In this document: positions 1 to 56,251 of the stretch, one piece after another | How the letters are laid out: each line of letters begins with the position of its first letter | Numbering within the stretch: position 1 is the first letter of the stretch | NCBI RefSeq assembly: GCF_004138165.1 | Contig: NZ_RYFF01000020.1 | Location: forward strand, 33,982-93,567 | Reading direction: 5' to 3' | Length of the DNA: 59,586 nucleotides | Origin: Candidatus Chloroploca sp. Khr17 | GTDB taxonomy: Bacteria > Chloroflexota > Chloroflexia > Chloroflexales > Chloroflexaceae | Position numbers and translations under genes: made by a program | Notes under the pieces: generated by a model | The model's database searches: none | Seen by the model: the letters and a program-made list of their open reading frames with translations, nothing else | Told to the model about the DNA's origin: nothing

Positions 1-3000
1 CCGGCGGCGGGGAACTGGGTCTGGATTCGCTTCATGCCGGAGAGTGCGGGGAGTCATCTGCGGTATGTGCGGGTGAGTTATGGCGGGAATACCTACGGGC
101 GCAGTCTGGACGTGCAGACAAGCGCCCTGCTGGTCGAAGACAGTACGATTGTTCGGTCGAATGGTAGCGGTATCTATAACGAAGGCGGCACCGTCACGGT
201 GCGCAACAGCGCTCTGCTCGACAGCACCAGTGGGGCGCAGGTCAGCGGGGGCCAGTTGCTGATCGAAAATAGCTTGATCAGCGGCAACAGTGAGGGTGTT
301 GCGGTCAGTGGCTCGCCTGCGGTGACGATTACCAACAGTTCGCTGGCTGACAACAGCAGTTATGGAGTCAACAATAGCAGTACGACCGTGATGGTGCAGG
401 CGGGGAATAACTGGTGGGGCGCGGCTTCGGGGCCGTACCACCCTACGCTCAATGCCGCTGGTCAGGGCGCCCGCGTGAGTGACCGGGTTGTCTTTAGCCC
501 GTGGCTTGGCGCGCCGCCCGCAGGCGTCGAACGACGCTATACCGTTGGTGGGCGGGTGACTTTCGACGGAGTTGGGCTGGCGGGCGTAACCGTCTCGGAC
601 GGTACGCGCAGTGCGGCGACCGATGCGAGTGGAGTCTACCTGCTGAATGCGGTGCCGGTGGGCGACTATACCCTAACCCCGGCCCGCGCTGGCTACAGCT
701 TTACCCCGGCAACCCGGGCGATCAGTGTCACGAATGACCTGAGTGGTCAGGACTTCAGTGCGACGACGACGAGTGGGCCGTCGCCAACGCCGACCGCGAC
801 AGCAACGAGTGTGCCGCCAACGGCGACATCTACCTCTACGGCAACGAGTGTGCCGCCGACGGCAACATCTACCTCCACGGCAACGCCGACGACAACCAGT
901 GTGCCGCCAACCCCAACTGCGACGGCAACTGGTGGCCCGTCGGCGACGCCGACACCAACGATTGTCGCTGCGCCAATCTGTGGCGCAACGGTGCAGGAAG
1001 TCAACGGGACGATCAATGGAGTGGTCACCTGGACGGCGGGCACGGTCTATGTGCTCAACGATGTCTATGTCAACAGCACGGCCACGCTGATCATTCAGCC
1101 GGGTACCGTGATCAAGGGGCGGGCCAACTCGCGCCTGCGGGTTGATGGACGCCTGTTCGCCGATGGAACGGTTGCCAATCCGATCTATTTCACTTCGTAC
1201 TACGATGATAGCCTGTGTGGTGACACTGATGGCAATGGAGCTTTGCCTCCGCCGGCAGCGCAGGACTGGGGCTTCATCCAGTTCAACTCGATCAGCAACG
1301 ATACGAGCAGTTTGACGCGGGCGGTGTTGCGTTATGGTGGCAAGGGTCAGGACACGGCGGCAAGTGGCGTTGTTCGGCTGGTTGATGCCGGGCCGAACCT
1401 GGCGAATCTGAGTATGAGCCAGAACTATCGCAATGGGGCTGAGTTGGTTTATACCGGGTCGGGTTGGAATACCACCACGCTCAACAGTCCCAGTGTCGTC
1501 TACTGGCTGAGCAGTGCGCTGGTGGTGAATGCCAACCAGACCTTGACGCTTGGGCCGGGGGTGAAGGTCAAGGGGGCGGCTCTGTCACGCCTGATCGTGA
1601 ATGGCACGCTCACGGCTGATGGTACCGTGCAAGCACCGCTGGTCTTTAGCTCGGAGAAGGATGACACCGTCTGTGGCGTTGGCGCGTCCGATGAGCCGGT
1701 CTGCGACATGGACAATGCCGTAGCGACACCGACGGCCCAGAACTGGGGCTACATCCAGTTTGGCGCGGGCAGCAACGATATCAGCAGTCTGACGCGGGCG
1801 GTGCTGCGTTATGGCGGGCTGGGCCAAGACACGGCGGCAAGCGGGGTGGTGCGGCTGGTGGATGCCGGGCCGAACCTGGCGAATCTCAGCATGAGCCAGA
1901 ACTACCGCAACGGGGCCGAGTTGTCCTACACCGGGGCGGGCTGGAATACCGCCACGCTCAACAGCCCCAGTGTCGTCTACTGGTTGAGCAGTGCGCTGGT
2001 GGTGAATGCCAACCAGACCTTGACGCTCGGGCCGGGGGTGAAGGTCAAGGGGGCGGCCCTGTCACGCCTGATCGTGAATGGCACGCTCACGGCGGATGGC
2101 ACGGCCCAGGCACCGCTGGTCTTCACCTCTGAGAAGGACGATACCGTCTGCGGCGTTGGCGCGGCTGATGAGCCGGTCTGCGATATGGACAATGCCGTGG
2201 CGACCCCGGCAACCCAGGACTGGGGCTTCATCCAGTTTAGCGCGGGCAGCAACGATACGAGCAGCCTGACGCGGGCGGTGCTGCGTTATGGCGGCAAGGG
2301 TCAGGATACGGCAGTGGGTGGGGTCGTGCGGCTGCTTGATGCTGCCCCGACCTTGAGTTACAACCTGCTGCGCACAAACTATGGTGGCGTCGAGTTGCTC
2401 AACGGTGCGTTGCCAGCACTTACCTGCAACGACTTCGAGCAGAACCAGCAGTTTGGCATGCGGAACGCGCTGCCGGCCACGGCGGTGACCGCCGAGAACC
2501 AGTGGTGGGGCCGTGCGACCGGGCCTACCCACGCCGGCAATGCGGGCGGCAATGGCGATGTGGTGTCGGATGGTGTGGACTACAACCCGTGGCGGAGTAT
2601 GCCGTGTACCTATACCGGTGAGCCAACCCCGACGCCGACCGTGACCACGACGAGCCAGCCAACCGCGACGGCGACGGCAACGAGTGTGCCGCCAACCGCG
2701 ACAGCGACGGCGACGAGTGTACCGCCAACCGCTACCGCGACGAGCGTGCCACCGACGCCAACATCCACGGCAACCTCGACCACTGTGCCTCCGACGCCGA
2801 CGGGCACAGCGACCGCCACCGCGACGAGCGTGCCACCGACTGCGACGGCGACCGCTACCGCGACGAGCGTGCCGCCAACCCCGACAACAACACCGATGCC
2901 AACGGTCGAGCCGGGTACCTGGCAGGCAACGGGCAGCATGCAGACCGGACGGGCCTGGCATACGGCTACGCGCCTGGCCGATGGTCGCGTGCTCGTTGCT

Positions 3001-5646
3001 GGTGGAAGTGCCGGTGCGTGGGGCACAGGGCTGCAGAGCGCCGAGATCTATGATCCGGCCACAGGAACCTGGACGCCCACGGGCAATATGAGCCAGGCTC
3101 GTTTTGCCCATACAGCGAACCTGCTGCCCAATGGCAAAGTGCTGGTTGCTGGTGGTGAAGGTGCTGGTTGGCTTGCCAGCGCCGAGATCTATGATCCGGC
3201 GACGGGCACTTGGAGTAGAACCGGTAATTTGCAGCGTGGACGGTCAATGCATACGGCAACGCTGTTGCCCAATGGCAAGGTGCTGGTTGCTGGTGGGTAC
3301 GGCGGCGGCGATCTTGCTAGTGCCGAACTCTATGACCCGGTCACTGGTCAGTGGAGCACCACCGGGAGCATGAAGACGGCGCGGATGCGCTATCCGGCGG
3401 TGCTGTTGACGAACGGCAAGGTGCTGGTTGCTAGTGGCTCGCAGTTTGGCGGGGGCACCTATCCAACGACGACTGGCGCCGAGATCTATGATCCCGCAAC
3501 TGGTCAGTGGAGTGACACCGGCAGCCTGAATATCTCGCGCCACCATCATCAGGCAGTGGTGTTGCCCAATGGCAACGTGCTGGTCGCCGGCGGCCAGAAT
3601 CTTCCGAATGCGAATAACGTGTTGAGCGCCGAGTTGTATGATCTGGCGAGCGGTCAGTGGAGCATGACCGCCTCGATGCAAGAGCCTCATACCAATATTG
3701 GTCCGATGGCGGTGCTCTTGTCAAATGGTCAGGCGCTGATGAGTGGCGGTGGGGCTCAGGAGTTGGGCAACGCGATTGTGCTGAGTGAACTCTACAATGC
3801 GACGACAGGTACCTGGAGTCGTACTGGTGATCTGCGTGAGGGTCGAAGTTCGCATGCGGTGGTGGTGCTGAACAATGGCTTGGTACTTGCTTCTGGTGGC
3901 TTCACAACCTATGGCGTTGGCCTGGCTACGGCCGAACTCTATGCGGTTGCGCAGAACCCTGGGGCGATCACGGTTGATGCCATCACACCACGCGAAGGTT
4001 CCGCCGGTCAGACGATCCGCGTGACGGTGCAGGGCACTGGTTTTGCCACGACACCGCCACCGACGGCGCGGCTCGTTGGGGTGGCAGGCTCATTTGCGCT
4101 GACCGAGGTCACGGCGCAAGGTGCGACCAGTTTCGCGGCAACGGTGCCGGCGACGGTGCCGCCTGGTGCATATGATCTGGTGGTGGACACAAATGGGCAG
4201 ACCGCGACCTTGCCCAACGCCTTCACGGTGCTGGCCGCCGCCCCGGCGGTGACCAGTGTCTTGCCACCGTCGGCGCTGAATGATGTTGAGACCGAGATGC
4301 TGGTGCAGGGGCGCAACTTTGCGGCAGGCGTTGGCGTGCGCCTCGGCACGACCAATCTTGAGACGACGCGCATTGATGGTGCAACGCTGCTCGCGGTGGT
4401 ACCGGCGGGTCTTGCGCCGGCAATCTACGACGTGGTCGTGACGAATCTCGGTGGTGGCGAGGCGCAACTTGCGCAAGCCTTCACCGTGGTTGATGCGACT
4501 GATGCAACCTTCGATGACCTCTTTAGCAGCAGCGATCAGCTTTGGATCAACCCGGTCTTGCCACGGGCGAATGAGCCTTTTGAGGTGGGTCTGGTGGTGC
4601 AACGCAGTGGGGGCAAGACGACCCTCACTGATATACCGGTCACCTTCCGCCGTGACTCGGTGACTGGCCCAGTCTTGGGCACGGCGACGGTGCCGTTCCT
4701 CGATCCACCGGCGAGCAGCGAGAGTACCACGCCGCTGAGCATCACGCTGCCAAACGCTGGGATCGTGACGCTCTATGCGATCATTGATCCCGAGGGCACG
4801 CTCACCGAAAGCACGACGACCAACAATGTGATCAGCCGGACGATGCTGGTGGCGGTGGCCGCCCGTGACCAGACGCCACCAGTCGTCACTGGCATTGGCA
4901 TCAATGGGGGTGCCGCGACGACCGTCGTGACCCGCGGCATAACGATCAATATCAGCGCTCTTGACCCATCGCCAAATGCCAGCGGGGTGCGGTCAGTCCA
5001 TGTGATCGAGTATGTCTACAACGAAGGCGCGCAGCGCTGGGTGCCGATGGCGAGTTCGGGCTGGTTGCCCTACAACCAGACGCCCGAAAGCTACCGCTGG
5101 ACCCTGGCACCGTTGCCAGGCATGCACTACCTGCAGGTACGGGCGCGAGACATGGCGAACAACATCTCGATCGGCCAGGCGCGTCGCTTGATCACCTACG
5201 AACCAGCAACTGACCGGATCAGGCGACGCCAGACGCGCATCTACCGCTATGAGGTCGGGGCGGGCCAGGAATTCCGGGTCAACCTGGATGTACTCTCGGG
5301 CGATGCGGATCTCTATGTCTGGTCATCTGATCCGCAGCAATCGGCCTGGGTGAGCAACCTGCCAGGCAGCGCCGACGAGCAGGTGAGCATCCCGGCTAGC
5401 CAGGTGGTACCGGGAGTGTACCAGGTCGAGGTCTACGGCTACACGGCGGCAGAATACCTGCTGACCACCTCGCTTGGCGGTACTCCGGCGTCGGCGCAGA
5501 TGTTGGGTGGTGGACTGGCCCAAGCGAAAGATTTGCCTGTAGCACCGTTGTTGCCAGTGAATGCGCAGCCGGATGCGCTGGTAGGCGATGTACCGCCAAT
5601 CGAAGCCGAGGTCTATCGGGTGTACTTGCCGTTGAGCTTGCGGTAA
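1..5646 (+). CDS. Giant secreted multidomain protein. The 5' end is truncated by the window edge, since the frame is open from nt 1. It contains parallel beta-helix repeats, a carboxypeptidase-regulatory-like fold, Thr/Pro linkers, a ~160-aa module duplicated 2.3x, a six-blade Kelch-like propeller, IPT/TIG-like Ig domains and a pre-peptidase C-terminal (PPC) domain. Its C-terminus is ...VYLPLSLR.
   Basis: Single 5.6-kb ORF with strong high-GC codon bias. Beta-helix repeat motifs of the NSxLxDxxSGAQVSGG type; Kelch-like blades (GRAWHTATRLADGRVLVAGG...) repeated about 6x; (TSVPPTAT)n linkers; a PPC-like block YRYEVGAGQEFRVNLDVLSGDADLYVWSSD. Confidence 0.8.
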   Translation, partial: PAAGNWVWIRFMPESAGSHLRYVRVSYGGNTYGRSLDVQTSALLVEDSTIVRSNGSGIYNEGGTVTVRNSALLDSTSGAQVSGGQLLIENSLISGNSEGVAVSGSPAVTITNSSLADNSSYGVNNSSTTVMVQAGNNWWGAASGPYHPTLNAAGQGARVSDRVVFSPWLGAPPAGVERRYTVGGRVTFDGVGLAGVTVSDGTRSAATDASGVYLLNAVPVGDYTLTPARAGYSFTPATRAISVTNDLSGQDFSATTTSGPSPTPTATATSVPPTATSTSTATSVPPTATSTSTATPTTTSVPPTPTATATGGPSATPTPTIVAAPICGATVQEVNGTINGVVTWTAGTVYVLNDVYVNSTATLIIQPGTVIKGRANSRLRVDGRLFADGTVANPIYFTSYYDDSLCGDTDGNGALPPPAAQDWGFIQFNSISNDTSSLTRAVLRYGGKGQDTAASGVVRLVDAGPNLANLSMSQNYRNGAELVYTGSGWNTTTLNSPSVVYWLSSALVVNANQTLTLGPGVKVKGAALSRLIVNGTLTADGTVQAPLVFSSEKDDTVCGVGASDEPVCDMDNAVATPTAQNWGYIQFGAGSNDISSLTRAVLRYGGLGQDTAASGVVRLVDAGPNLANLSMSQNYRNGAELSYTGAGWNTATLNSPSVVYWLSSALVVNANQTLTLGPGVKVKGAALSRLIVNGTLTADGTAQAPLVFTSEKDDTVCGVGAADEPVCDMDNAVATPATQDWGFIQFSAGSNDTSSLTRAVLRYGGKGQDTAVGGVVRLLDAAPTLSYNLLRTNYGGVELLNGALPALTCNDFEQNQQFGMRNALPATAVTAENQWWGRATGPTHAGNAGGNGDVVSDGVDYNPWRSMPCTYTGEPTPTPTVTTTSQPTATATATSVPPTATATATSVPPTATATSVPPTPTSTATSTTVPPTPTGTATATATSVPPTATATATATSVPPTPTTTPMPTVEPGTWQATGSMQTGRAWHTATRLADGRVLVAGGSAGAWGTGLQSAEIYDPATGTWTPTGNMSQARFAHTANLLPNGKVLVAGGEGAGWLASAEIYDPATGTWSRTGNLQRGRSMHTATLLPNGKVLVAGGYGGGDLASAELYDPVTGQWSTTGSMKTARMRYPAVLLTNGKVLVASGSQFGGGTYPTTTGAEIYDPATGQWSDTGSLNISRHHHQAVVLPNGNVLVAGGQNLPNANNVLSAELYDLASGQWSMTASMQEPHTNIGPMAVLLSNGQALMSGGGAQELGNAIVLSELYNATTGTWSRTGDLREGRSSHAVVVLNNGLVLASGGFTTYGVGLATAELYAVAQNPGAITVDAITPREGSAGQTIRVTVQGTGFATTPPPTARLVGVAGSFALTEVTAQGATSFAATVPATVPPGAYDLVVDTNGQTATLPNAFTVLAAAPAVTSVLPPSALNDVETEMLVQGRNFAAGVGVRLGTTNLETTRIDGATLLAVVPAGLAPAIYDVVVTNLGGGEAQLAQAFTVVDATDATFDDLFSSSDQLWINPVLPRANEPFEVGLVVQRSGGKTTLTDIPVTFRRDSVTGPVLGTATVPFLDPPASSESTTPLSITLPNAGIVTLYAIIDPEGTLTESTTTNNVISRTMLVAVAARDQTPPVVTGIGINGGAATTVVTRGITINISALDPSPNASGVRSVHVIEYVYNEGAQRWVPMASSGWLPYNQTPESYRWTLAPLPGMHYLQVRARDMANNISIGQARRLITYEPATDRIRRRQTRIYRYEVGAGQEFRVNLDVLSGDADLYVWSSDPQQSAWVSNLPGSADEQVSIPASQVVPGVYQVEVYGYTAAEYLLTTSLGGTPASAQMLGGGLAQAKDLPVAPLLPVNAQPDALVGDVPPIEAEVYRVYLPLSLR
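1261..2340 (+). repeat. Intragenic tandem duplication of about 477 bp per unit, 2.3 copies, with units starting at about 1261, 1738 and 2215. Nucleotide identity is above 90%.
   Basis: Near-identical DNA blocks, for example 1383-1670 against 1863-2150. They encode the repeated protein module QDWGFIQF...VCDMDNAVATPTA. Confidence 0.85.
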
Positions 5647-5675
5647 GAGTGCGTTTGGATGCCGTGCGTACGGAG

Positions 5676-5703
5676 GCCAGGGTAACTGGCCTCCGTACGT
5701 ACG
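5676..5703 (+). terminator. Perfect GC-rich hairpin 30 nt after the stop of the first giant gene: cgtacggaggccag-ggtaa-ctggcctccgtacg. There is no clear U-tract.
   Basis: 14-bp perfect stem with a 5-nt loop, read directly from the sequence. Confidence 0.5.
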
Positions 5704-5828
5704 AGGGCAACGGCATTATACGAAACCGGATACAACGGGGCACCCGCAAGGGGTACCCGTACCGGGGTGGGGCACCCGCCAGGGGTGCCCCTACAGGGCC
5801 GGGGGGCGGGCCCGGTGTAGGGGCACCC

Positions 5829-5958
5829 CTGGCGGGTGCCCTGGCGGGTGCCTTGGCGGGTGCCTTGGCGGGTGCCTTGGCGGGTGCCCTGGCGGGTGCC
5901 TTGGCGGGGTGCCCTGGCGGGTGCCCTGGCGGGTGCCCTGGCGGGTGCCCTGGCGGGG
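5829..5958. repeat. Tandem array of about 11 copies of the 12-nt unit CTGGCGGGTGCC(Y), with two 13-nt variants. An inverted copy of the same motif lies immediately upstream (5767-5830), forming a long hairpin or cruciform.
   Basis: Direct read of ctggcgggtgccctggcgggtgccttggcgggtgcc... The same 12-mer in reverse complement sits at 5772-5790. Confidence 0.8.
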
Positions 5959-6184
5959 TGCATACACGGAAGATGCAATCGCCCTGCGTACGATGTGAGC
6001 TATCATTGACACGAGAACTATAATAAAGATATGATGGCTCATCAGGTGATGAAAGGAGACACAACGCACTCAAATCCAGTTGGTTGTAACACACTCACAT
6101 GCATTTATATATCTTTCTCGCTGATGTGAGGTCAGTGATACCTGTTTCTGGGCAGATACCACGGCCACAAACAAGGTGAATATC

Positions 6185-9100
6185 ATGCAAGCCTCGTCGC
6201 GCCCTTCTCTTTCACCACGTTCATTGATCTTTTTGGGTCTGCTTGTTGTTGGTCTTGTGCTTGTTGGCTTTGCGCCCTTTGCCAGAGCCGCGCCGGGCTT
6301 CCCTACGGCCCCCGAGACGTTTGATGGTACCAGTCTTCCTTCTGGCTGGACTGTCGTCAATGTCCGCACTGATGCCCCCTATCCGATTGATGACCCCTAT
6401 CCCTTGCCCAATGATAGCCATGGATGGCGCTTTGATAACCCCGGAGCACGCCGGAATGTGACTGGTGGCACGGGTAATTTTGCCATTGCTGATAGCGACC
6501 ATGCTGGTCGTGGCAAAACGATGGATACGCAGTTACGCACGCCAACGTTCAGCCTCGAGGGCGTTGCTGCGGCCCGTCTCCAGTTCAATACCACCTTTCG
6601 TGCCTATGATCAGTCGACCGGCGATGTCGATCTGAGCATTGATGGTGGGCAAACCTGGACGACGATCTGGCGTACGACGAGGACGGTGCATGGGCAAGTC
6701 AAGGTCACCCTGCCCGCCAGTGCGCTCAATCAAACCAAGGTCAAGGTACGCTTCCGCTACTATAATGCCACCTGGGACTGGTACTGGGCCATTGATAATG
6801 TTGCCATTGTTATGGTTAATCTCCCCAATCCACCCGATGGCTTGCAGGCGACGCTCAAGGGTAGCGAGATTCAGTTGAACTGGAATGCCGCGCCCAATGT
6901 AAGCCGCTATGTCATCGAGCGTTCGCCTGATGGCACGAACTGGGCGACGATCGCTGAGGTTTTTGGTTCCCAGACACGGTTCACCGATACGCAGGGCTTG
7001 GTCTGTGGCCTCCCTTATCGCTATCGCCTGCTGGCGCGCAATGTGGCCGGCCTGTCACAGCCAAGCGCACCCGTAACCGCGACGACCGCCTCGTGTGATC
7101 GCCCGACGACGCTCAATGAGACTTTTACGGCCACCACGCTGCCTAATGGCTGGACAGTCGCGCCATCCTCGGGGGCGACCTGGTCGTTCAATAATCCGGG
7201 TGGACGCTTGAATTGGACCGGGGGGACAGGCAATTTTGCGGGTGTCGATAGCAACCGCGCTGGTGGTGCGTCGGTGGATGCCTCACTTGTCTCGCCTTCC
7301 CTCAACCTGAGCGATCAACCCAGTGTTGTCTTGCAATTCAAGACTTTTTTCTGGGCTTATCGACGGGCGACCGCTGGGGTTGATGTCAGTACCGATGGCG
7401 GAGAAACCTGGGTCAATGTCTGGCGACGAACCGGGTTGTTTTGGGGTCCCGTCACGCTCGATCTCTCTTCACGGCTGGCCGGCAAGAGCGTAGCGATGGT
7501 GCGCTTCAGCTACTCCACTCATGCGTACAATAATTCGTACTGGCAGGTTGACGATGTGCAGTTGCTGGCGATGAGCCCACCTGTCGCGCCGACCAATTTG
7601 CGTGGTTCCCTCCTGACTTCAGGTGACATAAGTCTCACCTGGGATGGCCGTGGGAGCCAGACCTTTGAACTGGAACGGGCGCTCGGCAGCAGTGGCAGTT
7701 TCCAGAAGATTGCCGAACTTGATCACGGCGTCACGAGCTTTATTGATACGACGGTTGCCTCGGAAACGCTCTATCGCTACCGTGTTCGTTCACGCAACGC
7801 GGTCGGCGTCTCGGCTTATAGCAATCTTGTTTCGCTCACCAGTGGCAATCGCAATGTACGAATGATTGACATAACAATTTCGTATTACGCGAATAGTGCG
7901 ACGGCACAGGCTCGCCGCCAGGCGATCGAAGCGAACGTGCGCTACTTTGCCGATAGCATCTACGAGATGTCCAACGGGGCGAATAAACTTCGTCGGGTGA
8001 CGATCTATACGGGTGGTGCCTTTGCCAATCAGGCGGATATTGTCTGGGTCGCGAATTGCTGGCCCAACGCCCATCTTTCAGGCTATGGCACGCCAGGGTT
8101 GCGCATTCAGCACTGTGATACGTTCCATGCGGCCAATTTCATGAACAGTGAGGTTGGCTATCGTCAAGGTGGCTATGTCCTTGGTCATGAAATGGGCCAC
8201 TACTTCTACTCGGTCTACGATGAATATCGGGGCAGCAGCCCGTCGACAGCCTGGATTGGTTTTCCGCGCTTGACTGATACCCCGGTGAATAACTCAGTAA
8301 TGAATAGTCAGTGGTATGCTGTGGACGGCAATCTCAACTGGCTCAACTTCTCGACTCTACGCAACAATACCGGCAATACGGCGCAGCACCGGGTCTATGC
8401 TGCCAGTGCCTGGCAAACCCTTGCCCGCCCCTTGTACCAGGATCCACGCAATGGTACACGGATGACGGCACCGGTGCGCCTCTTCCATCCTGAACTGGCG
8501 GCGGTTGCGCCGGCATTAGGGCAGGCGCCACGGATCGATCTGACCAGTCCCACTGCCCAGGCCAATGCACGCAACGCATTGAATTTCGTCTGGGTTGGCC
8601 AGTCAGGGAGCCCGCGCCTGCAGCAAGCCAATGCTGAAATGGCACTGCAGTTTGTGGTGGACACCTCGACGCAGATGAGCGAGGCGCAACTGGCTTCGAT
8701 CAAGGCGAATCTGAAGAATCTGGTTGACCAGGCGGCTGACACGACGATGATCGGCCTGCTGACCTATGCCGATACGGTGACGGTTGTGCAGCAGCCGGTG
8801 CTGCTCGACAGCGAGGCGAGCCGTACCGCGCTCAAGGCAACGCTTGATGGTCTGATGCTGAGCAATAGCGCTGCCGTGTTGACCGGCGAAGCGTTGGAAG
8901 CCGCGCTGGGGGTTGAGGGTGCTGCCGGTATTCCCGACAACGCGGTGCGTGCGGTCTATCTCTTTAGCGCCGGGATGTATACGGGCGCAAGCCATCCTTT
9001 TGCGCAGGTTGGCGCGTATCAAGATGCCGCCGTTACGCTAGAGACCTTTGATCTGGGACGCGATCCGCAACTTGCGGCAGAACTCTTCCAGATCGCGACG

Positions 9101-10432
9101 GCAACTGGCGGCGACTACTTTAGTGTCGCCGATACGACCGCCCTGCAGATGGGCTTGCGTGACGTGACCCATCGTGTATCACCCGTCGTTGACGTAGGCA
9201 TCGCCACCGGCTCGGGTGAGATGACGAATGGCACGCCGTATGAGGCGACCTTCTATGTTGATGCCAGCCTTGGCACCCTTGATCTCGATGTGATCTTCAG
9301 TGGCCTGCCCGCTGAGGCTACGCTCACGCTCACGCGACCTGATGGCACTGCGAGTGGAGCCATCTTTGCAACCTCTGGTGTTGATGATGGTTTTGGTGGT
9401 CAGTTTACGCTGGCCAGCACGCGCATCACTAATCCCGCCCTTGGTACCTGGACAGTGCGGGTGACCACAACGAGTGCCCGCAGCCGTGTCGCCTTCTGGG
9501 CTGACGGTGCGCCGCAAGCCGATGAAGGCACGTTCTTTGCCCACGTTCGTTCGCTGACGGGCAAGACAATCGCCGCCCCTGAGGCGCTCTTGATCGATGC
9601 GATGGTTGCCCAAGACTTCCCGATCACTGGTGGTGGTATCCGTGGCGAAATCACGCTGCCTGACGGCACGACCGTGCCGGTGGTCTTTACCGATGATGGC
9701 GTGGCCCCCGACTTCCTGGCGAATGATGGGCACTACAGTGCACTGATTGATTACCGGGGTGACGGTGCCTATTCCATTGCGGCCTTTTTCGATAACGACA
9801 ACGGGCAAGCCGTCTTTACCGAAGAGGCGGTTGCCCCATCCACGGCGCCCGATGGCTCCGTCCGGGAAGCTCAGACCTACCCGGTCGAAGGCAACTTCCA
9901 GCGGTACGCCACCACGAAGGTCTTTGTGACGGGATGGCAACCTGACGATCACGCGGATGATATGTTCGCGGCAACGCAGGTGTCGCCCGATAACACCCCG
10001 TTTGATGGGCGCATTGATCGTGCCGGCGACGTTGACATCTTCAAGGTTGACGTACCGGCTGATTACAGCGACGCGCTGGTACTGCGCATCGCGCAACTGG
10101 CCTTGGGCATGGATCCGGTTCTGACCGCCTTTGACACCGATGAGACCTGGTCAATCGACCGCTCGCTCGCCGATGCCACGGGTGACATGATCAGTGTCAG
10201 CCTGCCGAATAGTGCAGGGACAACGGTCTATATTGCGGTCAAGCATCACAACGCCGCCGCAACCACTGGCCTCTACGAGCTATCGGTGGGGCCACTGCTC
10301 GCCAATGAAGTGCCGGGTAACCTTGATCCAAAAGGTGCAGAGAATGCAATCTTCCTGCCCATGCTCCGGGTACCGGCACAAGGTATCCCGAATGCAGTGC
10401 ATGCGGTCTATCTGCCGCTTACGCTCCGGTGA
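6185..10432 (+). CDS. Secreted multidomain zinc metalloprotease. It has a signal peptide, MAM/FN3-like beta-sandwich domains, a zincin HExxH catalytic domain, a possible vWA-like domain and a PPC domain. Its C-terminus is ...VYLPLTLR.
   Basis: ATG at 6185 follows an AAGG Shine-Dalgarno sequence. The ORF track starts at GTG 6176. N-terminal hydrophobic signal LIFLGLLVVGLVLVGFAPFARAAPG; zincin motif VLGHEMGHYFYSVYDEY; PPC-like block GRIDRAGDVDIFKVDVPADYSD. Confidence 0.8.
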   Translation: MQASSRPSLSPRSLIFLGLLVVGLVLVGFAPFARAAPGFPTAPETFDGTSLPSGWTVVNVRTDAPYPIDDPYPLPNDSHGWRFDNPGARRNVTGGTGNFAIADSDHAGRGKTMDTQLRTPTFSLEGVAAARLQFNTTFRAYDQSTGDVDLSIDGGQTWTTIWRTTRTVHGQVKVTLPASALNQTKVKVRFRYYNATWDWYWAIDNVAIVMVNLPNPPDGLQATLKGSEIQLNWNAAPNVSRYVIERSPDGTNWATIAEVFGSQTRFTDTQGLVCGLPYRYRLLARNVAGLSQPSAPVTATTASCDRPTTLNETFTATTLPNGWTVAPSSGATWSFNNPGGRLNWTGGTGNFAGVDSNRAGGASVDASLVSPSLNLSDQPSVVLQFKTFFWAYRRATAGVDVSTDGGETWVNVWRRTGLFWGPVTLDLSSRLAGKSVAMVRFSYSTHAYNNSYWQVDDVQLLAMSPPVAPTNLRGSLLTSGDISLTWDGRGSQTFELERALGSSGSFQKIAELDHGVTSFIDTTVASETLYRYRVRSRNAVGVSAYSNLVSLTSGNRNVRMIDITISYYANSATAQARRQAIEANVRYFADSIYEMSNGANKLRRVTIYTGGAFANQADIVWVANCWPNAHLSGYGTPGLRIQHCDTFHAANFMNSEVGYRQGGYVLGHEMGHYFYSVYDEYRGSSPSTAWIGFPRLTDTPVNNSVMNSQWYAVDGNLNWLNFSTLRNNTGNTAQHRVYAASAWQTLARPLYQDPRNGTRMTAPVRLFHPELAAVAPALGQAPRIDLTSPTAQANARNALNFVWVGQSGSPRLQQANAEMALQFVVDTSTQMSEAQLASIKANLKNLVDQAADTTMIGLLTYADTVTVVQQPVLLDSEASRTALKATLDGLMLSNSAAVLTGEALEAALGVEGAAGIPDNAVRAVYLFSAGMYTGASHPFAQVGAYQDAAVTLETFDLGRDPQLAAELFQIATATGGDYFSVADTTALQMGLRDVTHRVSPVVDVGIATGSGEMTNGTPYEATFYVDASLGTLDLDVIFSGLPAEATLTLTRPDGTASGAIFATSGVDDGFGGQFTLASTRITNPALGTWTVRVTTTSARSRVAFWADGAPQADEGTFFAHVRSLTGKTIAAPEALLIDAMVAQDFPITGGGIRGEITLPDGTTVPVVFTDDGVAPDFLANDGHYSALIDYRGDGAYSIAAFFDNDNGQAVFTEEAVAPSTAPDGSVREAQTYPVEGNFQRYATTKVFVTGWQPDDHADDMFAATQVSPDNTPFDGRIDRAGDVDIFKVDVPADYSDALVLRIAQLALGMDPVLTAFDTDETWSIDRSLADATGDMISVSLPNSAGTTVYIAVKHHNAAATTGLYELSVGPLLANEVPGNLDPKGAENAIFLPMLRVPAQGIPNAVHAVYLPLTLR

Positions 10433-30185: not shown

Positions 30186-30290
30186 CCCGGTAGCGCCGCC
30201 GACCACGAAGAACCCTCACGAATATACGAAGCCAGGCTTTGTGACGCAATTATTCGTTGTTTCGTGGCCCCAATTCGTGGACGGCAACAC
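30186..30290. repeat. Copy A of a ~100-bp nested palindromic repeat (R2 family: CCGCCGACCACGAA...TTCGTGGACGG).
   Basis: Outer arms ccgccgaccacgaa / ttcgtggacgg. Related copies at 31866-31970, 59217-59312 and a half-copy at 53915-53960. Confidence 0.8.
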
Positions 30291-30321
30291 CCTTTGCGCC
30301 TTTGCGCCTTTGCGTCAAATC
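30291..30321. repeat. R3 repeat: CCTTTGCGCC(TTTGCGCC)TTTGCGTCAAA.
   Basis: Also at 56213-56251 and in reverse complement at 54985-55005. Confidence 0.7.
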
Positions 30322-38410: not shown

Positions 38411-38977
38411 TTACTTCTTACGCACAATCTTTGGTCTGCCCTGGAAACGTCCGAGCCGCCGCGCCTGTTCGATATGCTGTTCGTTGCGCTCTTGCATCTG
38501 TGCAGCTTCAAAATCGCGCAGGATCTCGTCGGGTTTCTGTAGTGGTTCGGCATGGGGCATAAACATGCTGCTGAGTGCTGCCAACCCCACGAGACCATCA
38601 ACTGTCTTCACCGCAGTGTAGGCTTTGGCCTGATTGAACTTGCCTTTGAACCAATTTAGTTTAGATATTTGATTCGGTGTGGGGGATTTTGGCTGATTCG
38701 AGCCACGAACAGTAGGGTGCTGCAGACCTCCTCGCACGTTGCGTGTTGGCAACGTACTGCTTGGCTTCGCCTTAACTTGTTTTAGTGGTGGCGTCCGAAC
38801 CTTTGATGTTGGGTGCTTCGCCAGTTTGCGTGTCGCTTGCTGCAACTTGACTGGTGTAACCCGCTGCCGGGCGGTTGTTGAAGCAACTGGTTGTAGAGCA
38901 CGTACTGGCGGCGTAGGCTTTGGGGTATTGGGGTTGCTCACACCTGCCCCACTTTTAGTACTCCGATTAACCTTCAT
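38411..38977 (-). CDS. Basic Lys/Pro/Thr-rich protein of about 188 aa. It is a probable paralogue of the preceding gene (shared KVNRS N-terminus).
   Basis: Its ATG overlaps the TGA stop of the upstream ATPase gene (ATGA), which indicates translational coupling. Confidence 0.5.
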   Translation of the reverse strand: MKVNRSTKSGAGVSNPNTPKPTPPVRALQPVASTTARQRVTPVKLQQATRKLAKHPTSKVRTPPLKQVKAKPSSTLPTRNVRGGLQHPTVRGSNQPKSPTPNQISKLNWFKGKFNQAKAYTAVKTVDGLVGLAALSSMFMPHAEPLQKPDEILRDFEAAQMQERNEQHIEQARRLGRFQGRPKIVRKK

Positions 38978-41787
38978 GCGCCTGCTCCAATCAACATTTG
39001 CAGCACCTGGGCATCTACGGGTAAGCCCGAGTTGCGCATCCAATCAGCAGCCAAACGCAGGTAGACCCGTCGCACTTCGGCGTAGCGCGGGTGCGCACCA
39101 AATCGTGCCGTACAGATCTGCTCAATCTGGGTATGGTCCAGGGCACGATCTCCATAGCCCCCCAGAACATCTTCAATCGTTTCAGGCAAGCTATACCCAT
39201 CTTGTGCAAGCACCCACTTAGCTGCGGCATGGGGATCGTCCGGTAGGATGCTAACGGTCTGCACTTGGTTTGGCATCGGTGGCTGCCAGAGCGCCGCTGG
39301 CGGCATCTGCAACGGGCGGCGGGCCATCATCGCCTTCACGGCCTCATCGGAGTCATCAAAGATCGGGCGATCATCGGGCGTCTGAAAACGATCCAGGTAG
39401 TTGCCAACCTGCACGAAGATCGGGCGACTATCGGGGCCTCGTACAATCACTTGGCCCTGCCCGAGTGAGCGTACGTATTCGCGCTGACGCTCATTCAGGT
39501 TCATCACCTCACAGAAGAGCTTAAAGCTCTCCTGATCTTCGAGCCGATGCATGATTTTGAGGTTCGTATTGCCTAGCGCACCATTGACCAGTTGGGTTGG
39601 GATCTGCTCAGCGATCAAGATCCCTTCCCCAAACCCGCGCACCTCAGCCAAAATATTGGCGAAATCCTCTCCACCACGACTCCGTGCGTCAGCAAGATCT
39701 TCGCTACCCTTGTGTCCAGCCGACATAAGCCGATGGGCTTCTTCGATCAGAGTCATGTGCAGTTGTTTGCCGCGTTGTTCGGGTGGGAGGCGTTTGTAGC
39801 GGCTCTGCAATTCTTGGGTCAGTTGTACCAACAAAAAGGCCATAATCAGGGCGCTATCTTCGGGGGAGCCAACCCTTCCTAATTCCATGACGGTTGGCCG
39901 TGAGAGCACTACACTGAGCGGGGCTGGAGCCGTGGTATTGACAATTGTCCCTGCATTGAGCAGAAGATCACGCATGCGAATTTCGGCTGATTGGCGTACC
40001 CGGTCTTTGGCCTCCTCATCAAAGCCCGCCGTCATCAACTCGCTCACCGCAACGAGCGTCGTGTAGAACGCAGCCAAGGTGGGGGTGCCTACCCCCGGAT
40101 CGCCCCCCTTGCCCTGTTCGAGATTCCAACCTGCATCGGTATAGACCTGACGCAGGGCTGCGCGATAAATCGCTGGCAGAGGATCCCACATCGAGAAGGC
40201 GGCCATAAAACAGCGCATCAACAAACTGAGATGGGTCTTAAGCAAGATCCCCTCTGCCACGTAGAAGGGGTTGAAGCGGAAAGGCGTGGTGGTTTCATCA
40301 CCCAGCGTAAAAATTAGCAGATCGTCGGCCATTTGTGGGTCGGCCATGAGTAGCCGATAGTCCGGTTTGTCAATTGGGTACATCACCAGGAATGGTACCT
40401 GGTGGTCGGCCCAAAGTTGGGCCAGCATGTGCAGGCATGTGTTAGTTTTACCGCTTCCCGTAGCCCCTGCGATGAGACCGTGGCGGTTAAGGTCACGGAT
40501 CGGAATTTGCATATACTGGCCAGTACGCGTGCCACGATGGATGATCTCACCGAGGTTCAAACAGGGCACGTTGGTGAGCAGGCGATCGGTTGGCAAAACG
40601 AATGGCTCGTCGCGTACCTCAAGCCCGGGTAGATAACCACTCTCGGGGGGGATCGGCAGACGGAAGGCCCCCGCCGCTTGGTCGGTACTGACGAGATAGC
40701 GCAAGCGTACTGTCGCCTGATCAACGCGTGTTGGCCCCCAGGCTCCGTACTCAAGAAACGCAAAGTTATAACGTGCAATCGCCAGATCTTGATCATCCTT
40801 AGGGCTTTCGCTGGCCCATTGACGTGGCTCCGGCGTATTGTTTTGAATCAACTCGGAACCCAGCGCTTCCATTACATCATTAGGTGCATAATCCGATCCT
40901 ATCACTTGGATTTTTATGCGGAATAAATGATTTCTTTTGTTGATCAGAGGCATAAAGGTACGGGAAATATCATCAAAGCGTTCACGGCGATACAAATCAA
41001 ACCATGATTTGGACTCAACTTCTGCTGTGAGATTGCGATAACGTGAGAGCAGTAAGTTAATCTGGAGTAGCTCTTCGTGGAAGAGCACTGTTGGTCGCAA
41101 GCAGATGCTTGCGACACAGGTTTGCTCTTGTTGCACCAGCGTTTCTAAGAAGCGGCCAAAAGCAGAAGCATCAAAAACTGGACTAAAGGGATGTGGGAAG
41201 TAGCCAATGGCATCAGTACCTGCGTATGGATCAAAATCCTCAAACTTGCGAATCTCGACCAATTGGTTCATGCCTACCTGTTCAATGGGAATAGGTAACA
41301 TTGAACGCATGAAGTCGTCTTCGCCTAACGGCTCTAATGGGTAGTTGAAAGGATCTTCGAGAGGGTAGTGACTACGAAACTTGCACCAGAGCTGCCAGCA
41401 CAGATTTTTGGCGCGATTGCGGTTGGGATGGAAAGCCTTGCCAAGAAAGACAATCTCAATGGTTGGGCGATGTCCTGTCACTTGACTTGGTCGAGCAATA
41501 AACCGCAGATCGAAGGCGGCACTACCCTCGGCAATCATCCGAGCGTTGATCAAATCATTCAGGAAGCGGATTTGACGCAGCGTAATCAACCGAATACGAC
41601 TCAGTTCACCTCCACTGAGCGTACGCGTGAAATCGCTGGTTAAAAAACTAGGAATGAACGGCACCCGTGCTGCAAAGATAGCGTGCGCCCCCTGCTGGCG
41701 AGTGACTTGCACCCCACTACCCCCCCAACTCTCGGCATAGTGGAACTCATCGGGATTGCTGACGTAGATGAACGGCTCTTGCAACAT
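38974..41787 (-). CDS. HerA/FtsK-superfamily (DUF87/AAA_10-type) P-loop ATPase of 937 aa with a large N-terminal extension.
   Basis: Walker A GATGSGKTNT; Walker B plus EAH block HMTLIEEAHRL; sensor KIMHRL. AGGAAGG Shine-Dalgarno sequence upstream. Confidence 0.75.
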   Translation of the reverse strand: MLQEPFIYVSNPDEFHYAESWGGSGVQVTRQQGAHAIFAARVPFIPSFLTSDFTRTLSGGELSRIRLITLRQIRFLNDLINARMIAEGSAAFDLRFIARPSQVTGHRPTIEIVFLGKAFHPNRNRAKNLCWQLWCKFRSHYPLEDPFNYPLEPLGEDDFMRSMLPIPIEQVGMNQLVEIRKFEDFDPYAGTDAIGYFPHPFSPVFDASAFGRFLETLVQQEQTCVASICLRPTVLFHEELLQINLLLSRYRNLTAEVESKSWFDLYRRERFDDISRTFMPLINKRNHLFRIKIQVIGSDYAPNDVMEALGSELIQNNTPEPRQWASESPKDDQDLAIARYNFAFLEYGAWGPTRVDQATVRLRYLVSTDQAAGAFRLPIPPESGYLPGLEVRDEPFVLPTDRLLTNVPCLNLGEIIHRGTRTGQYMQIPIRDLNRHGLIAGATGSGKTNTCLHMLAQLWADHQVPFLVMYPIDKPDYRLLMADPQMADDLLIFTLGDETTTPFRFNPFYVAEGILLKTHLSLLMRCFMAAFSMWDPLPAIYRAALRQVYTDAGWNLEQGKGGDPGVGTPTLAAFYTTLVAVSELMTAGFDEEAKDRVRQSAEIRMRDLLLNAGTIVNTTAPAPLSVVLSRPTVMELGRVGSPEDSALIMAFLLVQLTQELQSRYKRLPPEQRGKQLHMTLIEEAHRLMSAGHKGSEDLADARSRGGEDFANILAEVRGFGEGILIAEQIPTQLVNGALGNTNLKIMHRLEDQESFKLFCEVMNLNERQREYVRSLGQGQVIVRGPDSRPIFVQVGNYLDRFQTPDDRPIFDDSDEAVKAMMARRPLQMPPAALWQPPMPNQVQTVSILPDDPHAAAKWVLAQDGYSLPETIEDVLGGYGDRALDHTQIEQICTARFGAHPRYAEVRRVYLRLAADWMRNSGLPVDAQVLQMLIGAGA

Positions 41788-41806
41788 ACGGGTGCCTTCC
41801 TGATCA

Positions 41807-43195
41807 CTAAGCGTAAGCGGTCATAACGGCTTCGACCAGCACAAGTAGATCGCACTGGGGCGTCCAGTTAGCGAGCGGTTCAGGCATGAAGCGCTGCTCT
41901 TGTCCATCGAACTCTACAAACATAGTTGGAGCCTCTTGGGGATACCGAGCCGTACAACTAAAATAGATGCCGAGGGTGTGCCCAAGCTGATCACGCAGGC
42001 TGACACTGACCAGGAAGACGTTCGCATCTTCGTGTAGGGCGGCGTTTAGTCCCTGTGCTAGCATTGCGCCTATCTCGTTGCGCAGGCGTTCGCCAGCACC
42101 TGCGCCGCTGAAGCGTGCGACGGGTGACGGTAAAGCGGGAACAGTCACACCATACATCCCTCCGAGAGTAGCTGTAGGTGGGGCTACGGCCTGTCCGGTG
42201 AGCGCCCCAAGCAACACCTGTTGAAGGTCATTGCTACCTGCCGCCGATGTCCCCATCGGCAGCATCCCCGCCTTCGCCATCTCGGTCAGGGCCAGTAAGC
42301 GTTGTCCATCTGTTTGCGCTTTATCACCAAAGACACGCGTGTACATGTCTGGATTGGTCAGCAAGAGATATTGCGGTGTCAATTCAATCATGCGCGAGAT
42401 ATTCATCTGTGTGAGCGCCTGTGCCATCGCAATCTCGGCCTGCGAGTTCGCCTGGATCTTCGCGACCTCGGCATCAGTTTGCGCCTCGCGGGTACGCATA
42501 TAAACGTCACGTAATTTCTTGTCCAGTTCTTCAGCACCCGCAATACGCGTGATCTGGACGTTCGAGACTCGTATTCCCAAGTTGTCTTCAATGCCGCGTT
42601 GCTGCAATTGCTGTGCAACCATGTAACCTGCATGACCGCCCGCCTGGAAATCCTGGTATTTAGCAATTGATGCAGTGATCGAACGAATTGATTCCATCAC
42701 CGTATCATAGAGCCTCGTGAGCGGCTGTTCGACGACAAGCGCAACGTGTTCAGGATGAATTATCTGATAACTGACTGCAACATCGAGATCAACTGGCAAT
42801 GCAATCTTCTCACCCTGGGGCGGCTGATAGAAAATCGTAAACTCCTTCGTCGTTGTTATATCCAGCGTGCGCTCACGCGTATTGACCACGTAGAGATCAA
42901 TGCGATTCATCACGGGAAACGAGAGCGCGTGATAACTCCCTTCTTGCAGCACTTCGAGCACTCTGCCATCCCCGGTCACAACGACGGTAGTGCCAGCCAT
43001 AACCCGAAAGATACGAAAGATACTGGTGAAGACATTGTTATGAACACGTACTGGACCAAAGACAAGGGGTGAATTACTTAGATCAGCAAACGGTTCACGC
43101 AGGAAGTCATCAAGCGAGCCCTGTCTGCTCGCTGCTTCCTTATCGTTAACGTGACGACGGTTTAGGGGCATGGTCTGGTCACGGTTAGTTCCCAT
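41807..43195 (-). CDS. SPFH/band-7 (stomatin/prohibitin-like) domain protein with a C-terminal UEV/RWD-like (inactive E2) domain.
   Basis: SPFH core VVVTGDGRVLEVLQEGSYH...DLDVAVSYQI plus a coiled-coil segment. C-terminal block GIYFSCTARYPQEAPTMFVEFDG carries the YPxxxP flap and lacks a catalytic Cys. Start placed at the ATG with an AGGAAGGAG Shine-Dalgarno sequence at 43195. Confidence 0.7.
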   Translation of the reverse strand: MGTNRDQTMPLNRRHVNDKEAASRQGSLDDFLREPFADLSNSPLVFGPVRVHNNVFTSIFRIFRVMAGTTVVVTGDGRVLEVLQEGSYHALSFPVMNRIDLYVVNTRERTLDITTTKEFTIFYQPPQGEKIALPVDLDVAVSYQIIHPEHVALVVEQPLTRLYDTVMESIRSITASIAKYQDFQAGGHAGYMVAQQLQQRGIEDNLGIRVSNVQITRIAGAEELDKKLRDVYMRTREAQTDAEVAKIQANSQAEIAMAQALTQMNISRMIELTPQYLLLTNPDMYTRVFGDKAQTDGQRLLALTEMAKAGMLPMGTSAAGSNDLQQVLLGALTGQAVAPPTATLGGMYGVTVPALPSPVARFSGAGAGERLRNEIGAMLAQGLNAALHEDANVFLVSVSLRDQLGHTLGIYFSCTARYPQEAPTMFVEFDGQEQRFMPEPLANWTPQCDLLVLVEAVMTAYA

Positions 43196-43229
43196 ACGAG
43201 CCAACTCCTTCCTGAGGCGCACAAGGTTG

Positions 43230-44453
43230 TTAGGTTTGATTGGGTAATATGCTAAGCTGAATGACCGGAAGATCAGCCAAGATGTCCGAAGCTTCGGCGG
43301 CTGCTTCTTGTTCACTCATCTTGAGGCTTTCGGCTACGAAAGCTGAATAGTTGCACACCGGACATTGAGCATTCTTCGGCACATCAATGAAGAGGCTCTC
43401 TAACGGCTGTTGAAAGATCCACTCCGCACGATTACCGAAGAGGAGCCAGTTCGTCGGCAGATCCGGTAGCGTGTTCTGCTTATCGCGCAGAAGCGTTAGT
43501 AACGCCATACGCGCCATTAACAGCGCAATCATACCCACATCAACCCCTAGACCTGGCTGAGCCAGTAATTCTTCCATACGTGCGGGATCTTCGTAACCCA
43601 GCGAGAAATCCTGTGTAGCGGCAGGGGGAGGGCCAAAAAAATCGGCAATGACGGTCTGAAAACAGGCGTAGCAAGCACCCTCGGAGGGAATTGCACGGAA
43701 GATATCACCCCCAAAGGCGCGATTGTAGGCTGCGGCATAGATAGCCGGGATCCCTCTTGGCCAGCACACGGTATTGACCGCCAACTTTGAGTCTTCATGA
43801 TCAGTAGCGACCACAACCAGATCACACCCGGTAACAATGGTAGCTAGTTGATCCTCATGGCCTAACACGTTCAACTCGTAGGTCTCGACGGTAATTGCGG
43901 GCGAGATGTCGTAGAGCAGATCGCGCAGGGCACGGGTCTTATAGCGCCCGATATCGTGGAGGCCACACGCATGACGTGCAATATTGTGAACTTTGAGCCG
44001 ATCAAAATCCACCAACCGCATCTGCCCTACTCCGCAACGAGCAAGCTGGCTCGCCACCACTGAACCACCTGAGCCGAGGCCAATCACGGCAATGCACGTA
44101 TTGGCGAGGCTGCTCACTTCAAAGATGCCGTGCATACGTGAGGCATAGTCAGTATGCAAACGGATGACGTTGCAGGAAATCGTTTCCCATCCAGTAGCCT
44201 TGCTTTGCCAACCAGCAACCTGATCTGGCAACTCATCGTCAATGTTGAGGACTATTTCTTCCGGGGCCAGTTCTGTTGTTGGCGGTACAGGGCTGCGATA
44301 CCAGCGACCTAGGTACGCACCGGACGCCTCAAGGATTCCCCTGATTTGCACGACATCGCCATCGTCATAACGGTAGCCGTAGAGCTTGCCCTCTGTCTGT
44401 GCAGCAGTACCAAGCAACTGGTTAATCAAGCTATCAGGAACGGTAAGAAACAT
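43230..44453 (-). CDS. E1-like ubiquitin-activating enzyme of the ThiF/MoeB/HesA family, with an N-terminal extension and a C-terminal Cys cluster.
   Basis: VIGLGSGGSVVASQLARCGVGQMRLVDFDRLKVHNIARH (GxGxxG plus a D-x-D ... NxxR block); LVVVATDH; CPVCNYS. Confidence 0.8.
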   Translation of the reverse strand: MFLTVPDSLINQLLGTAAQTEGKLYGYRYDDGDVVQIRGILEASGAYLGRWYRSPVPPTTELAPEEIVLNIDDELPDQVAGWQSKATGWETISCNVIRLHTDYASRMHGIFEVSSLANTCIAVIGLGSGGSVVASQLARCGVGQMRLVDFDRLKVHNIARHACGLHDIGRYKTRALRDLLYDISPAITVETYELNVLGHEDQLATIVTGCDLVVVATDHEDSKLAVNTVCWPRGIPAIYAAAYNRAFGGDIFRAIPSEGACYACFQTVIADFFGPPPAATQDFSLGYEDPARMEELLAQPGLGVDVGMIALLMARMALLTLLRDKQNTLPDLPTNWLLFGNRAEWIFQQPLESLFIDVPKNAQCPVCNYSAFVAESLKMSEQEAAAEASDILADLPVIQLSILPNQT

Positions 44454-44464
44454 CGGCAGACTCC

Positions 44465-45865: not shown

Positions 45866-45866
45866 G

Positions 45867-56084: not shown

Positions 56085-56212
56085 GGGGGTTTTTAACGCA
56101 GAGGCGGTGAGGTGGGGAGGCGCAGGGATGGGGCGCTTTTTTGAACGCAGAGGCGCATCTGCCGGCGGTGACGGTTGACTCGTGTTGGCGCGAAGTTGCG
56201 CATACAGCTCCA

Positions 56213-56251
56213 TCAAACCTTCGCGCCCTTGCGCCTTTGCGTCAAATAAGG
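56213..56251. repeat. R3 repeat immediately upstream of the acetyltransferase start codon.
   Basis: catcaaaccttcgcgcccttgcgcctttgcgtcaaataagg. Confidence 0.7.

Follow-up and report, generated by a model that had tools for sequence, protein, structure and literature searches.

A short mosaic mobile element, resembling miniature inverted-repeat transposable elements, probably accounts for a structured intergenic region in Candidatus Chloroploca

The BOX elements of Streptococcus pneumoniae are built as boxA-boxB(n)-boxC, with two different end modules acting as terminal repeats around a variable internal array. Their length is hypervariable between strains, and a transposase partner was inferred for them from terminal-repeat similarity (Croucher et al. 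2011, PMC3049150). Transposable elements of the miniature inverted-repeat type (MITEs) are usually described as AT-rich, and the Correia and ERIC elements, 100-150 bp long, can incidentally affect neighbouring transcripts (PMC3049150). The ISAs1 family of insertion sequences (IS) has as its signature a 14-22-bp terminal repeat starting with CAGGG and a 10-bp direct repeat (PMC11946415); in ISArsp11, the terminal repeat is CAGGGCTGATGCAAAGTCG and the direct repeat is 10 bp long (PMC6305408). Here, we analysed a stretch of 59,586 nucleotides from Candidatus Chloroploca sp. Khr17 (contig NZ_RYFF01000020.1, positions 33,982 to 93,567; hereafter the window), in which the region between a Kelch-repeat gene and a gene for a secreted HEXXH protein holds a stem-loop, an inverted repeat and a tandem array of a 12-mer. 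Positions 5704-5986 of the window are very probably one copy of a small, non-coding, multi-copy, MITE-like mosaic mobile element that is specific to Chloroploca, a genus of filamentous phototrophs. The best reading of the inverted repeat and the array is that they form the interior of this element, as selfish repeats whose internal array is unstable, and are no dedicated control region of the downstream protease.

The search for further arrays used one genome per species and, as pattern, two adjacent units (TGGCGGGTGCCYTGGCGGGTGCC, exact). It returned 38 stretches. An initial annotation of the locus, made from the sequence alone, had proposed searching the genome for other CTGGCGGGTGCC arrays, and the search was positive: 18 of the 38 stretches came from Ca. 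Chloroploca asiatica B7-9 and Ca. C. mongolica M50-1. By array search alone, at least nine loci were found in C. asiatica and at least six in C. mongolica (loci are given below as L numbers). Many of the Chloroploca matches were located at contig starts or ends, with unambiguous contig ends in L009, L012, L025 and L028. Four contig ends stopped after exactly six units (70 nt), as predicted for repeat collapse by the assembler.

A broad distribution of the element, suggested by array matches in Gemmatimonadota, Proteobacteria, Actinomycetota, Bradymonadia and Anaerolineaceae, was rejected. All ten of the 20 non-Chloroploca matches that were checked lay in long open reading frames (ORFs) encoding KAPA-type repeats, and judging by these sequences the matches appear to be a codon-level coincidence unrelated to the element. 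The 12-nt unit TTGGCGGGTGCC builds long arrays in KAPAKAPA Lys/Ala/Pro-repeat genes of Gemmatimonadota, Proteobacteria, Bradymonadia and Actinomycetota (L002, L007, L010, L018, L022, L027, L031, L034), and such coding arrays can mislead DNA-pattern searches. In metagenome contigs, a degenerate pattern over both element ends gave four chance matches in unrelated sequence, and the family was not found there. These repeats go unmentioned in the Chloroploca genome paper.

The Chloroploca copies have a common frame. It starts with a left end (AGGGCGATTGCATC-ATACGAAACCGGATACAAC, end A), continues with one or more G+C-rich hairpin modules and a run of the 12-mer, and closes with a right end (CTGGCGGGGTGCATACACGGAA-GATGCAATCGCCCT, end B). 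At their outer edges, end A and end B are inverted repeats of each other over 14-15 nt. When 19 ends were aligned, 11 of type A and 8 of type B, they showed unrelated flanks, then a pyrimidine, then the invariant AGGGCGATTGCATC, after which the two end types diverge. The canonical terminal inverted repeat across these ends is YAGGGCGATTGCATC, 15 bp long, and begins with CAGGGCG... at nine ends and with TAGGGCG... at another nine. Both ends of the window element align with the 17 other ends, which come from C. asiatica and C. mongolica, while their flanks are unrelated. The other end-A copies all (10/10) have AGGGC[G/A]ATTGCAT[C/T] ends that differ from the consensus by at most one substitution.

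Target-site duplications of 10-11 bp were present in four intact copies. The smallest complete copy, 141 bp long (L015:6902-7042), has both terminal repeats, one hairpin module, a single unit and an 11-nt flanking direct repeat. Three C. asiatica elements split between contigs were re-paired by their identical 10-nt flanks, TAGTCTACCT (L001/L008), CAGGTTAGAC (L025/L017) and GCGCCTTCAG (L028/L021). Since there were only about 25 possible pairings, each with a chance of ~1e-6 for a 10-mer match, these flank identities are real target-site duplications. The copies are short, non-coding and dispersed, and range in size from 141 bp to several hundred bp. All of them are intergenic and lie beside unrelated genes, facing 5' and 3' gene ends alike. 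No orientation bias relative to the neighbouring genes was found among the copies, which fits a selfish element in permissive intergenic DNA. Of the features by which MITEs are recognised, terminal repeats, target duplications, short non-coding dispersed copies and presence/absence polymorphism were present, but no matching autonomous IS was found in ~440 kb of loci.

In the window copy, the parts follow each other in the order of the common frame (Table 1). The end-A motif AT[AG]CGAAA[CT]CGGA recurs in eight of the ten other end-A copies, with a deviating end in L021, and the first 13 bases of the window end A are identical in four C. asiatica copies (L003, L012, L015, L033). The window copy has a damaged left end and is probably immobile now.

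Table 1 Coordinates of the element, its parts and the neighbouring features in the window.
Feature	Position	Strand	Details
Kelch/PPC/CARDB gene, upstream	34-5646		ORF, 1870 aa; stop codon 17 nt before the stem-loop
Stem-loop	5663-5703	+	Arms 5663-5680 / 5686-5703, 18 nt, 94% complementary, 5-nt loop
MITE-like mosaic element copy (very probable)	5704-5986	+	About 282 bp; order: end A, hairpin units, 12-mer array, end B
Left terminal inverted repeat	5704-5717	+	Degenerate, AGGGCAACGGCATT; consensus AGGGCGATTGCATC; 4 mismatches in 14
End-A subterminal sequence	5718-5736	+	ATACGAAACCGGATACAAC; from alignment with other end-A copies
Extra small-hairpin unit	5737-5768	+	32 nt, GGGGCACCC-GCAA-GGGGTACCC...; tandem duplicate of the left arm unit
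Inverted repeat (long hairpin module)	5770-5841	.	Arms 5770-5795 and 5816-5841, 26 nt, 100% complementary
Minisatellite	5829-5949	+	Ten YTGGCGGGTGCC units, one of them 13 nt (5901-5913)
End-B subterminal junction	5950-5971	+	CTGGCGGGGTGCATACACGGAA; conserved across end-B copies
Right terminal inverted repeat	5972-5986	-	Perfect match to CAGGGCGATTGCATC
Predicted right copy of the target-site duplication	5987-5996	.	10 bp, CGTACGATGT; intact copies elsewhere have 10-bp duplications
Promoter-like site	6006-6035	+	TTGACA-18-TATGAT; 11/12 matches; conserved in C. mongolica; 20 bp past the element end
Secreted protein gene, downstream	6185-10432	+	1415 aa; start ATG 6185; signal peptide, fn3 and VWA domains, HEMGH motif; neighbour, not part of the element

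The interior of the element is built from one motif in both orientations. The 20-nt G+C spacer between the arms of the inverted repeat is partly self-complementary and leaves a smaller effective loop, and each 26-nt arm folds on its own as a 9-bp mini-hairpin. Tandem Repeats Finder reported the array at 5827-5957, with a period of 12, 10.8 copies, 95% matches and a score of 225. The T-variant units of the array are grouped together, as local duplication would predict. With at most one mismatch allowed, the 12-mer has 12 matches in the window, 11 of them here and one elsewhere, against 0.54 expected; the pattern of the hairpin unit has five, against 0.02 expected. The 13-nt units of the array disrupt every reading frame. 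The element DNA has a predicted fold of -105.6 kcal/mol (z = -6.9).

Much of the initial description of this architecture stands. All three elements named in it are present, but the stem-loop had been placed at 5676-5703 instead of 5663-5703, and the centre of the inverted repeat at 5797 instead of about 5805. The claim that the 12-mer makes up one half of the inverted repeat, so that one motif occurs in both orientations, was borne out by the complementarity of arm and unit: part of the left arm reads as the 12-mer in reverse complement. Two 13-nt variants had been counted, and units of this length are indeed found at 5901-5913 and 5950-5962. The second one, CTGGCGGGGTGCA, which directly follows the ten array units, is however no variant but the conserved, non-repeated junction to the right end of the element (end B), and is present in other copies of the family. 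Clustered regularly interspaced short palindromic repeats (CRISPR) had been dismissed and are ruled out, as the units stand head-to-tail without spacers.

The hairpin modules, of which 14 were identified in the Chloroploca loci, could also be read as the mobile unit themselves. They would then be REP/REPIN-type sequences spread by RAYT or by recombination, with the terminal-repeat shell as one carrier. Each module consists of two inverted, G+C-rich palindromic units of 24-26 nt, about 12-23 nt apart, like a REP doublet. Modules occur in tandem, some without one or both terminal repeats (L003, L023, L017b), their loop is found in both orientations relative to the ends, and the mosaic architecture is reminiscent of BIMEs. 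However, the 15-bp terminal repeat is present on most readable ends and 10-bp duplications on the intact copies, and REP/REPIN sequences have neither. The hairpin motif is also absent from the remainder of the window, although REPs are usually dense, and no RAYT gene was seen, though no genome-wide search was made. We therefore consider a REP/REPIN origin of the modules unlikely.

The array varies in length throughout the family, from one unit to at least 12 per copy. The initial view of a copy-number-variable sequence was correct in that orthologous and paralogous copies differ in unit number. One orthologous element could be compared between C. asiatica (L012 and L006) and C. mongolica (L013), with left flanks 96% and right flanks 83% identical. 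Unit and module counts differ between the two, with a contig break in one assembly and an N-gap in the other. The members of another orthologous pair (L003/L023) have unequal numbers of whole hairpin modules. The 32-nt units of the left side multiply as well, with one extra unit in the window (5737-5768) and two in L025.

The structure of the unit offers a possible origin for this instability. The 12-mer corresponds to the loop and 3' arm of the mini-hairpin GGGCACCC-CTGGC-GGGTGCCC, and a single 5' arm is for this reason able to pair with any of the repeat units. Misaligned pairing of the 5' arm would, we infer, drive replication slippage or unequal exchange. Either process would turn the hairpin half-site into a minisatellite whose length varies from copy to copy. 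A more far-reaching proposal is that a hairpin with a multiplied 3' arm is a self-expanding structure co-opted as contingency loci beside genes for large secreted or surface proteins, array length tuning transcription or upstream read-through, or that the family moves by a hairpin-dependent mechanism undescribed for ISAs1-like ends. The window copy does sit between two genes for large secreted or surface proteins, but we regard this proposal as quite improbable.

The syntenic site in C. mongolica (L039) has the Kelch-repeat gene, the HEXXH gene, sucA, sucB and a pyridoxal phosphate (PLP) decarboxylase gene in the same order as in the window. The Kelch/HEXXH intergenic region is 254 bp long there, compared with 538 bp in the window. 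Both the inverted repeat and the array are absent from L039, and positions 5718-5997 of the window (280 nt) are missing. The 3' stem-loop, the promoter hexamers and the highly conserved 150-nt leader are retained. The inverted repeat and the array are therefore dispensable for the downstream gene, because C. mongolica keeps promoter and leader without them. If the element has an effect on a neighbouring gene, it would be incidental.

The site in C. mongolica reads ...CGCACGT-AACGGCATT-GCTCATCATTGACA. The simplest reading would be that the element is older than the species split, and that C. mongolica deleted nearly all of it and was left with a 9-nt scar. An insertion beside a repeat-like target is the alternative. 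The 9-mer AACGGCATT is common to the left repeat of the window copy and to the C. mongolica site. Elsewhere in the examined loci the 9-mer occurs at about chance frequency, and in no other end-A copy.

This comparison bears on the functions first proposed for the array. In the initial annotation, it was suggested to be a copy-number switch controlling the downstream protease. At a contingency (phase-variation) locus of this kind, 12-mer slippage would alter the promoter context and tune expression of the secreted HEXXH protein. The unit number does vary between copies, and between species at one orthologous copy; a strong promoter-like site follows, its -35 hexamer 49 bp downstream of the array end; and the closest analogue, the BOX element, is able to modulate genes next to it (PMC3049150). 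However, the array lies neither in the -35/-10 spacer nor in the coding sequence, and the C. mongolica orthologue keeps promoter and leader without any array. Other copies, which adjoin unrelated genes, are turned towards 3' and 5' ends with equal frequency. A switch dedicated to the protease is not supported by these observations, and we hold a contingency role of the array to be very improbable.

A set of phased, iteron-like binding sites for a regulator or a nucleoid-associated protein had been suggested as well. Many identical direct repeats together with inverted copies of one motif would suit such an array, but its 12-bp period is out of helical phase and its copy number is unconstrained, from one to at least 12. 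Neither position nor number is conserved, as the array is absent at the orthologous promoter region in C. mongolica. The motif always lies within the frame of a bounded, multi-copy mobile element, with no further sites in the window. This idea was abandoned as extremely unlikely.

We give just as little credence to a structured RNA (small RNA, attenuator or terminator) encoded by the region and acting on the flanking genes. The predicted RNA fold over 5647-6000 is very stable (z = -9.6), and transcribed MITEs of other bacteria are RNase targets or attenuators (PMC3049150). However, no Rfam family was matched at the gathering threshold in the whole window, and an E-value search of 5500-6400 gave only sub-threshold look-alikes of miRNA hairpins. 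Covariation across the 14 hairpin modules was uninformative, because the arms were too conserved and the two variable positions were mismatched as often as matched; these data neither support nor oppose a selected structure. The hairpin is not followed by a T-tract, and C. mongolica does without the structure.

The stem-loop at 5663-5703 is not part of this structure. It is a conserved 3' hairpin of the upstream gene, lying outside the element and abutting its left end, with a perfect 14-bp core (5667-5680 / 5686-5699). In L039 (~9765-9805) it carries a compensatory change from an A-T to a G-C pair, plus a change from a G-T to a G-C pair. Earlier labelled a terminator hairpin, it is conserved but has no T-tract, and it is separate from the element. 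The terminator scan did not call it as an intrinsic terminator, for want of a T-run after the stem. Probably, this is a hairpin at the mRNA 3' end or a structure akin to a terminator; termination without a T-tract or stabilisation of the mRNA may be its role.

Returning to the mobile element, its ends point to a partner. With a 15-bp terminal repeat, a (C)AGGG start and a 10-bp duplication, it fits the signature of the ISAs1 family. Judging by this end signature, the element would most likely be moved in trans by an ISAs1-family DDE transposase. With the E. coli YhhI (ISAs1 / H-repeat transposase) as tblastn query, the C-terminal 155 aa of an ISAs1-type transposase were found at the start of a C. 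mongolica contig (SIJK02000030.1). This contig begins inside an ISAs1-type IS (L032:1-490), the end of which (CAGGGCTTGAGCAAAGTC / CAGGGCTTGAGCAAAGTCAGAGCC) is 15 nt away from a copy of the element. Homologues of the transposase fragment in L032 are annotated as 'transposase YbfD/YdcC'. A full relative of 1327 bp (L050:1192-2518) has the ends CAGGGCATGAGCAAAGTC, and in related full-length copies the transposase is split into two ORFs.

Several observations weigh against a MITE-like element mobilised in this way. The ends of the resident and related ISAs1 elements, CAGGGCWTRAGCAAAGTC (L032, L046, L048, L050), match those of the element only at CAGGGC....GCA; they diverge after position 6 and are not near-identical to it. 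No autonomous IS with the ends of the element was found in ~440 kb of loci or in the metagenome contigs. Three loci (L003, L017b, L023) are without one terminal repeat or are made of multiplied hairpin modules, and part of the spread of the family may not have been classical transposition. In the window itself there is a single copy, its left repeat is degenerate, and the left duplication, CGTACG(A) at 5698-5704, retains 6-7 of 10 bases. The 9-mer AACGGCATT in the 'empty' site of C. mongolica is an idiosyncratic part of this very left repeat.

Further observations concern the neighbouring genes. The upstream Kelch gene has large internal tandem repeats, with periods of 477 nt (x 2.3) and 141 nt (x 1.8), as well as short repeats resembling Thr/Pro linkers (1252-2342, 2658-2889, 3109-3365). 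Its C. mongolica orthologue encodes a much shorter protein of 1404 aa. In the protein collection, the closest relative of the downstream protein was 87% identical (Ca. Chloroploca sp. M-50), and the next matches had at most 52% identity. When the window and C. mongolica are compared, the ~150-nt leader of this HEXXH/VWA gene (6036-6184; L039:9860-10000) is better conserved than the beginning of its coding sequence. The leader includes the inverted repeat CTCACAT (6094-6100) / ATGTGAG (6124-6130), has no Rfam match and may be cis-regulatory.

Other repeats and genes were noted along the way. A second short dispersed motif, CGCC(T/C)TTGCGCCTTTGCGTCAAA (CCTTTGCG repeats), is found in the window at ~30283-30320 and ~56210-56245 and in C. 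asiatica at L015 ~260-290, and probably represents a further family of small repeats. In C. mongolica, a different tandem duplication, ~130 nt in size, lies upstream of a cluster of hairpin modules (CACCCCGCTGCGCCAGCAATGTCACCCCGAGCGCAGCGAGGGGTCTTCC...; L023:5888-5480, - strand). The window also holds a gene cluster at 38974-45928 (- strand). Its products are a HerA-like ATPase of 937 aa, an SPFH/Band-7 protein, an E1-like enzyme of the ThiF family and a prokaryotic JAB deubiquitinase-like protein. The cluster resembles an island for ubiquitin-like conjugation or for defence, and adjoins a low-G+C stretch (36-39 kb, 47-48% G+C) with ORFs that have no Pfam match.

With the element, an eye-catching 'structured regulatory region' is accounted for by one copy of a MITE-like family, undescribed and specific to its genus, of phototrophic Chloroflexota. 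In practice, the family causes contig breaks and N-gaps in the published drafts of Chloroploca, and its variable arrays could serve as strain-typing markers. Its copies are natural examples of a minisatellite born from one hairpin arm, and the family would be a rare candidate for a MITE with ISAs1-type ends. For annotation, it is a warning that such arrays are not to be read as regulator sites. General knowledge of gene regulation or transposition is unchanged by this result.

Compared with known systems, the Chloroploca element combines familiar parts in its own way. With the Correia elements of Neisseria and the ERIC elements of Enterobacteria, it shares the build of an intergenic, hairpin-forming MITE bounded by terminal repeats (PMC3049150). 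These elements differ in having no variable internal tandem array and other duplications (TA for Correia), and their sequence is unrelated. The REP/BIME/REPIN sequences of Proteobacteria are similarly G+C-rich, imperfect palindromes in inverted pairs and mosaic clusters, intergenic and often near the 3' hairpins of genes. In contrast to the Chloroploca element, they have no terminal inverted repeats or target duplications and depend on RAYT, and 12-nt minisatellites are not known in them. The resemblance to IS-derived MITEs lies in the 15-bp (C)AGGG repeat, the 10-bp duplication, the non-coding length of 141-282 bp or more and the presence of ISAs1-type transposase genes in the genus. Unlike the usual MITE, the element is not AT-rich, and unlike ISAs1, about half of its ends start with T and not with C. 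Its closest functional counterpart is the BOX element of S. pneumoniae. Both are small, non-coding, dispersed, composite and intergenic, fold tightly and have an internal module in variable number. In both, two unlike end modules make up the terminal inverted repeats, length differs from strain to strain, and terminal-repeat similarity alone points to the transposase partner. They have no sequence relationship, and the internal unit is ~45 nt long in BOX but 12 nt in the Chloroploca element. The latter is very G+C-rich, its unit derives from half of its own hairpin, and it stands apart from BOX by its 10-bp duplication, its ISAs1-like ends and its Chloroflexota host.

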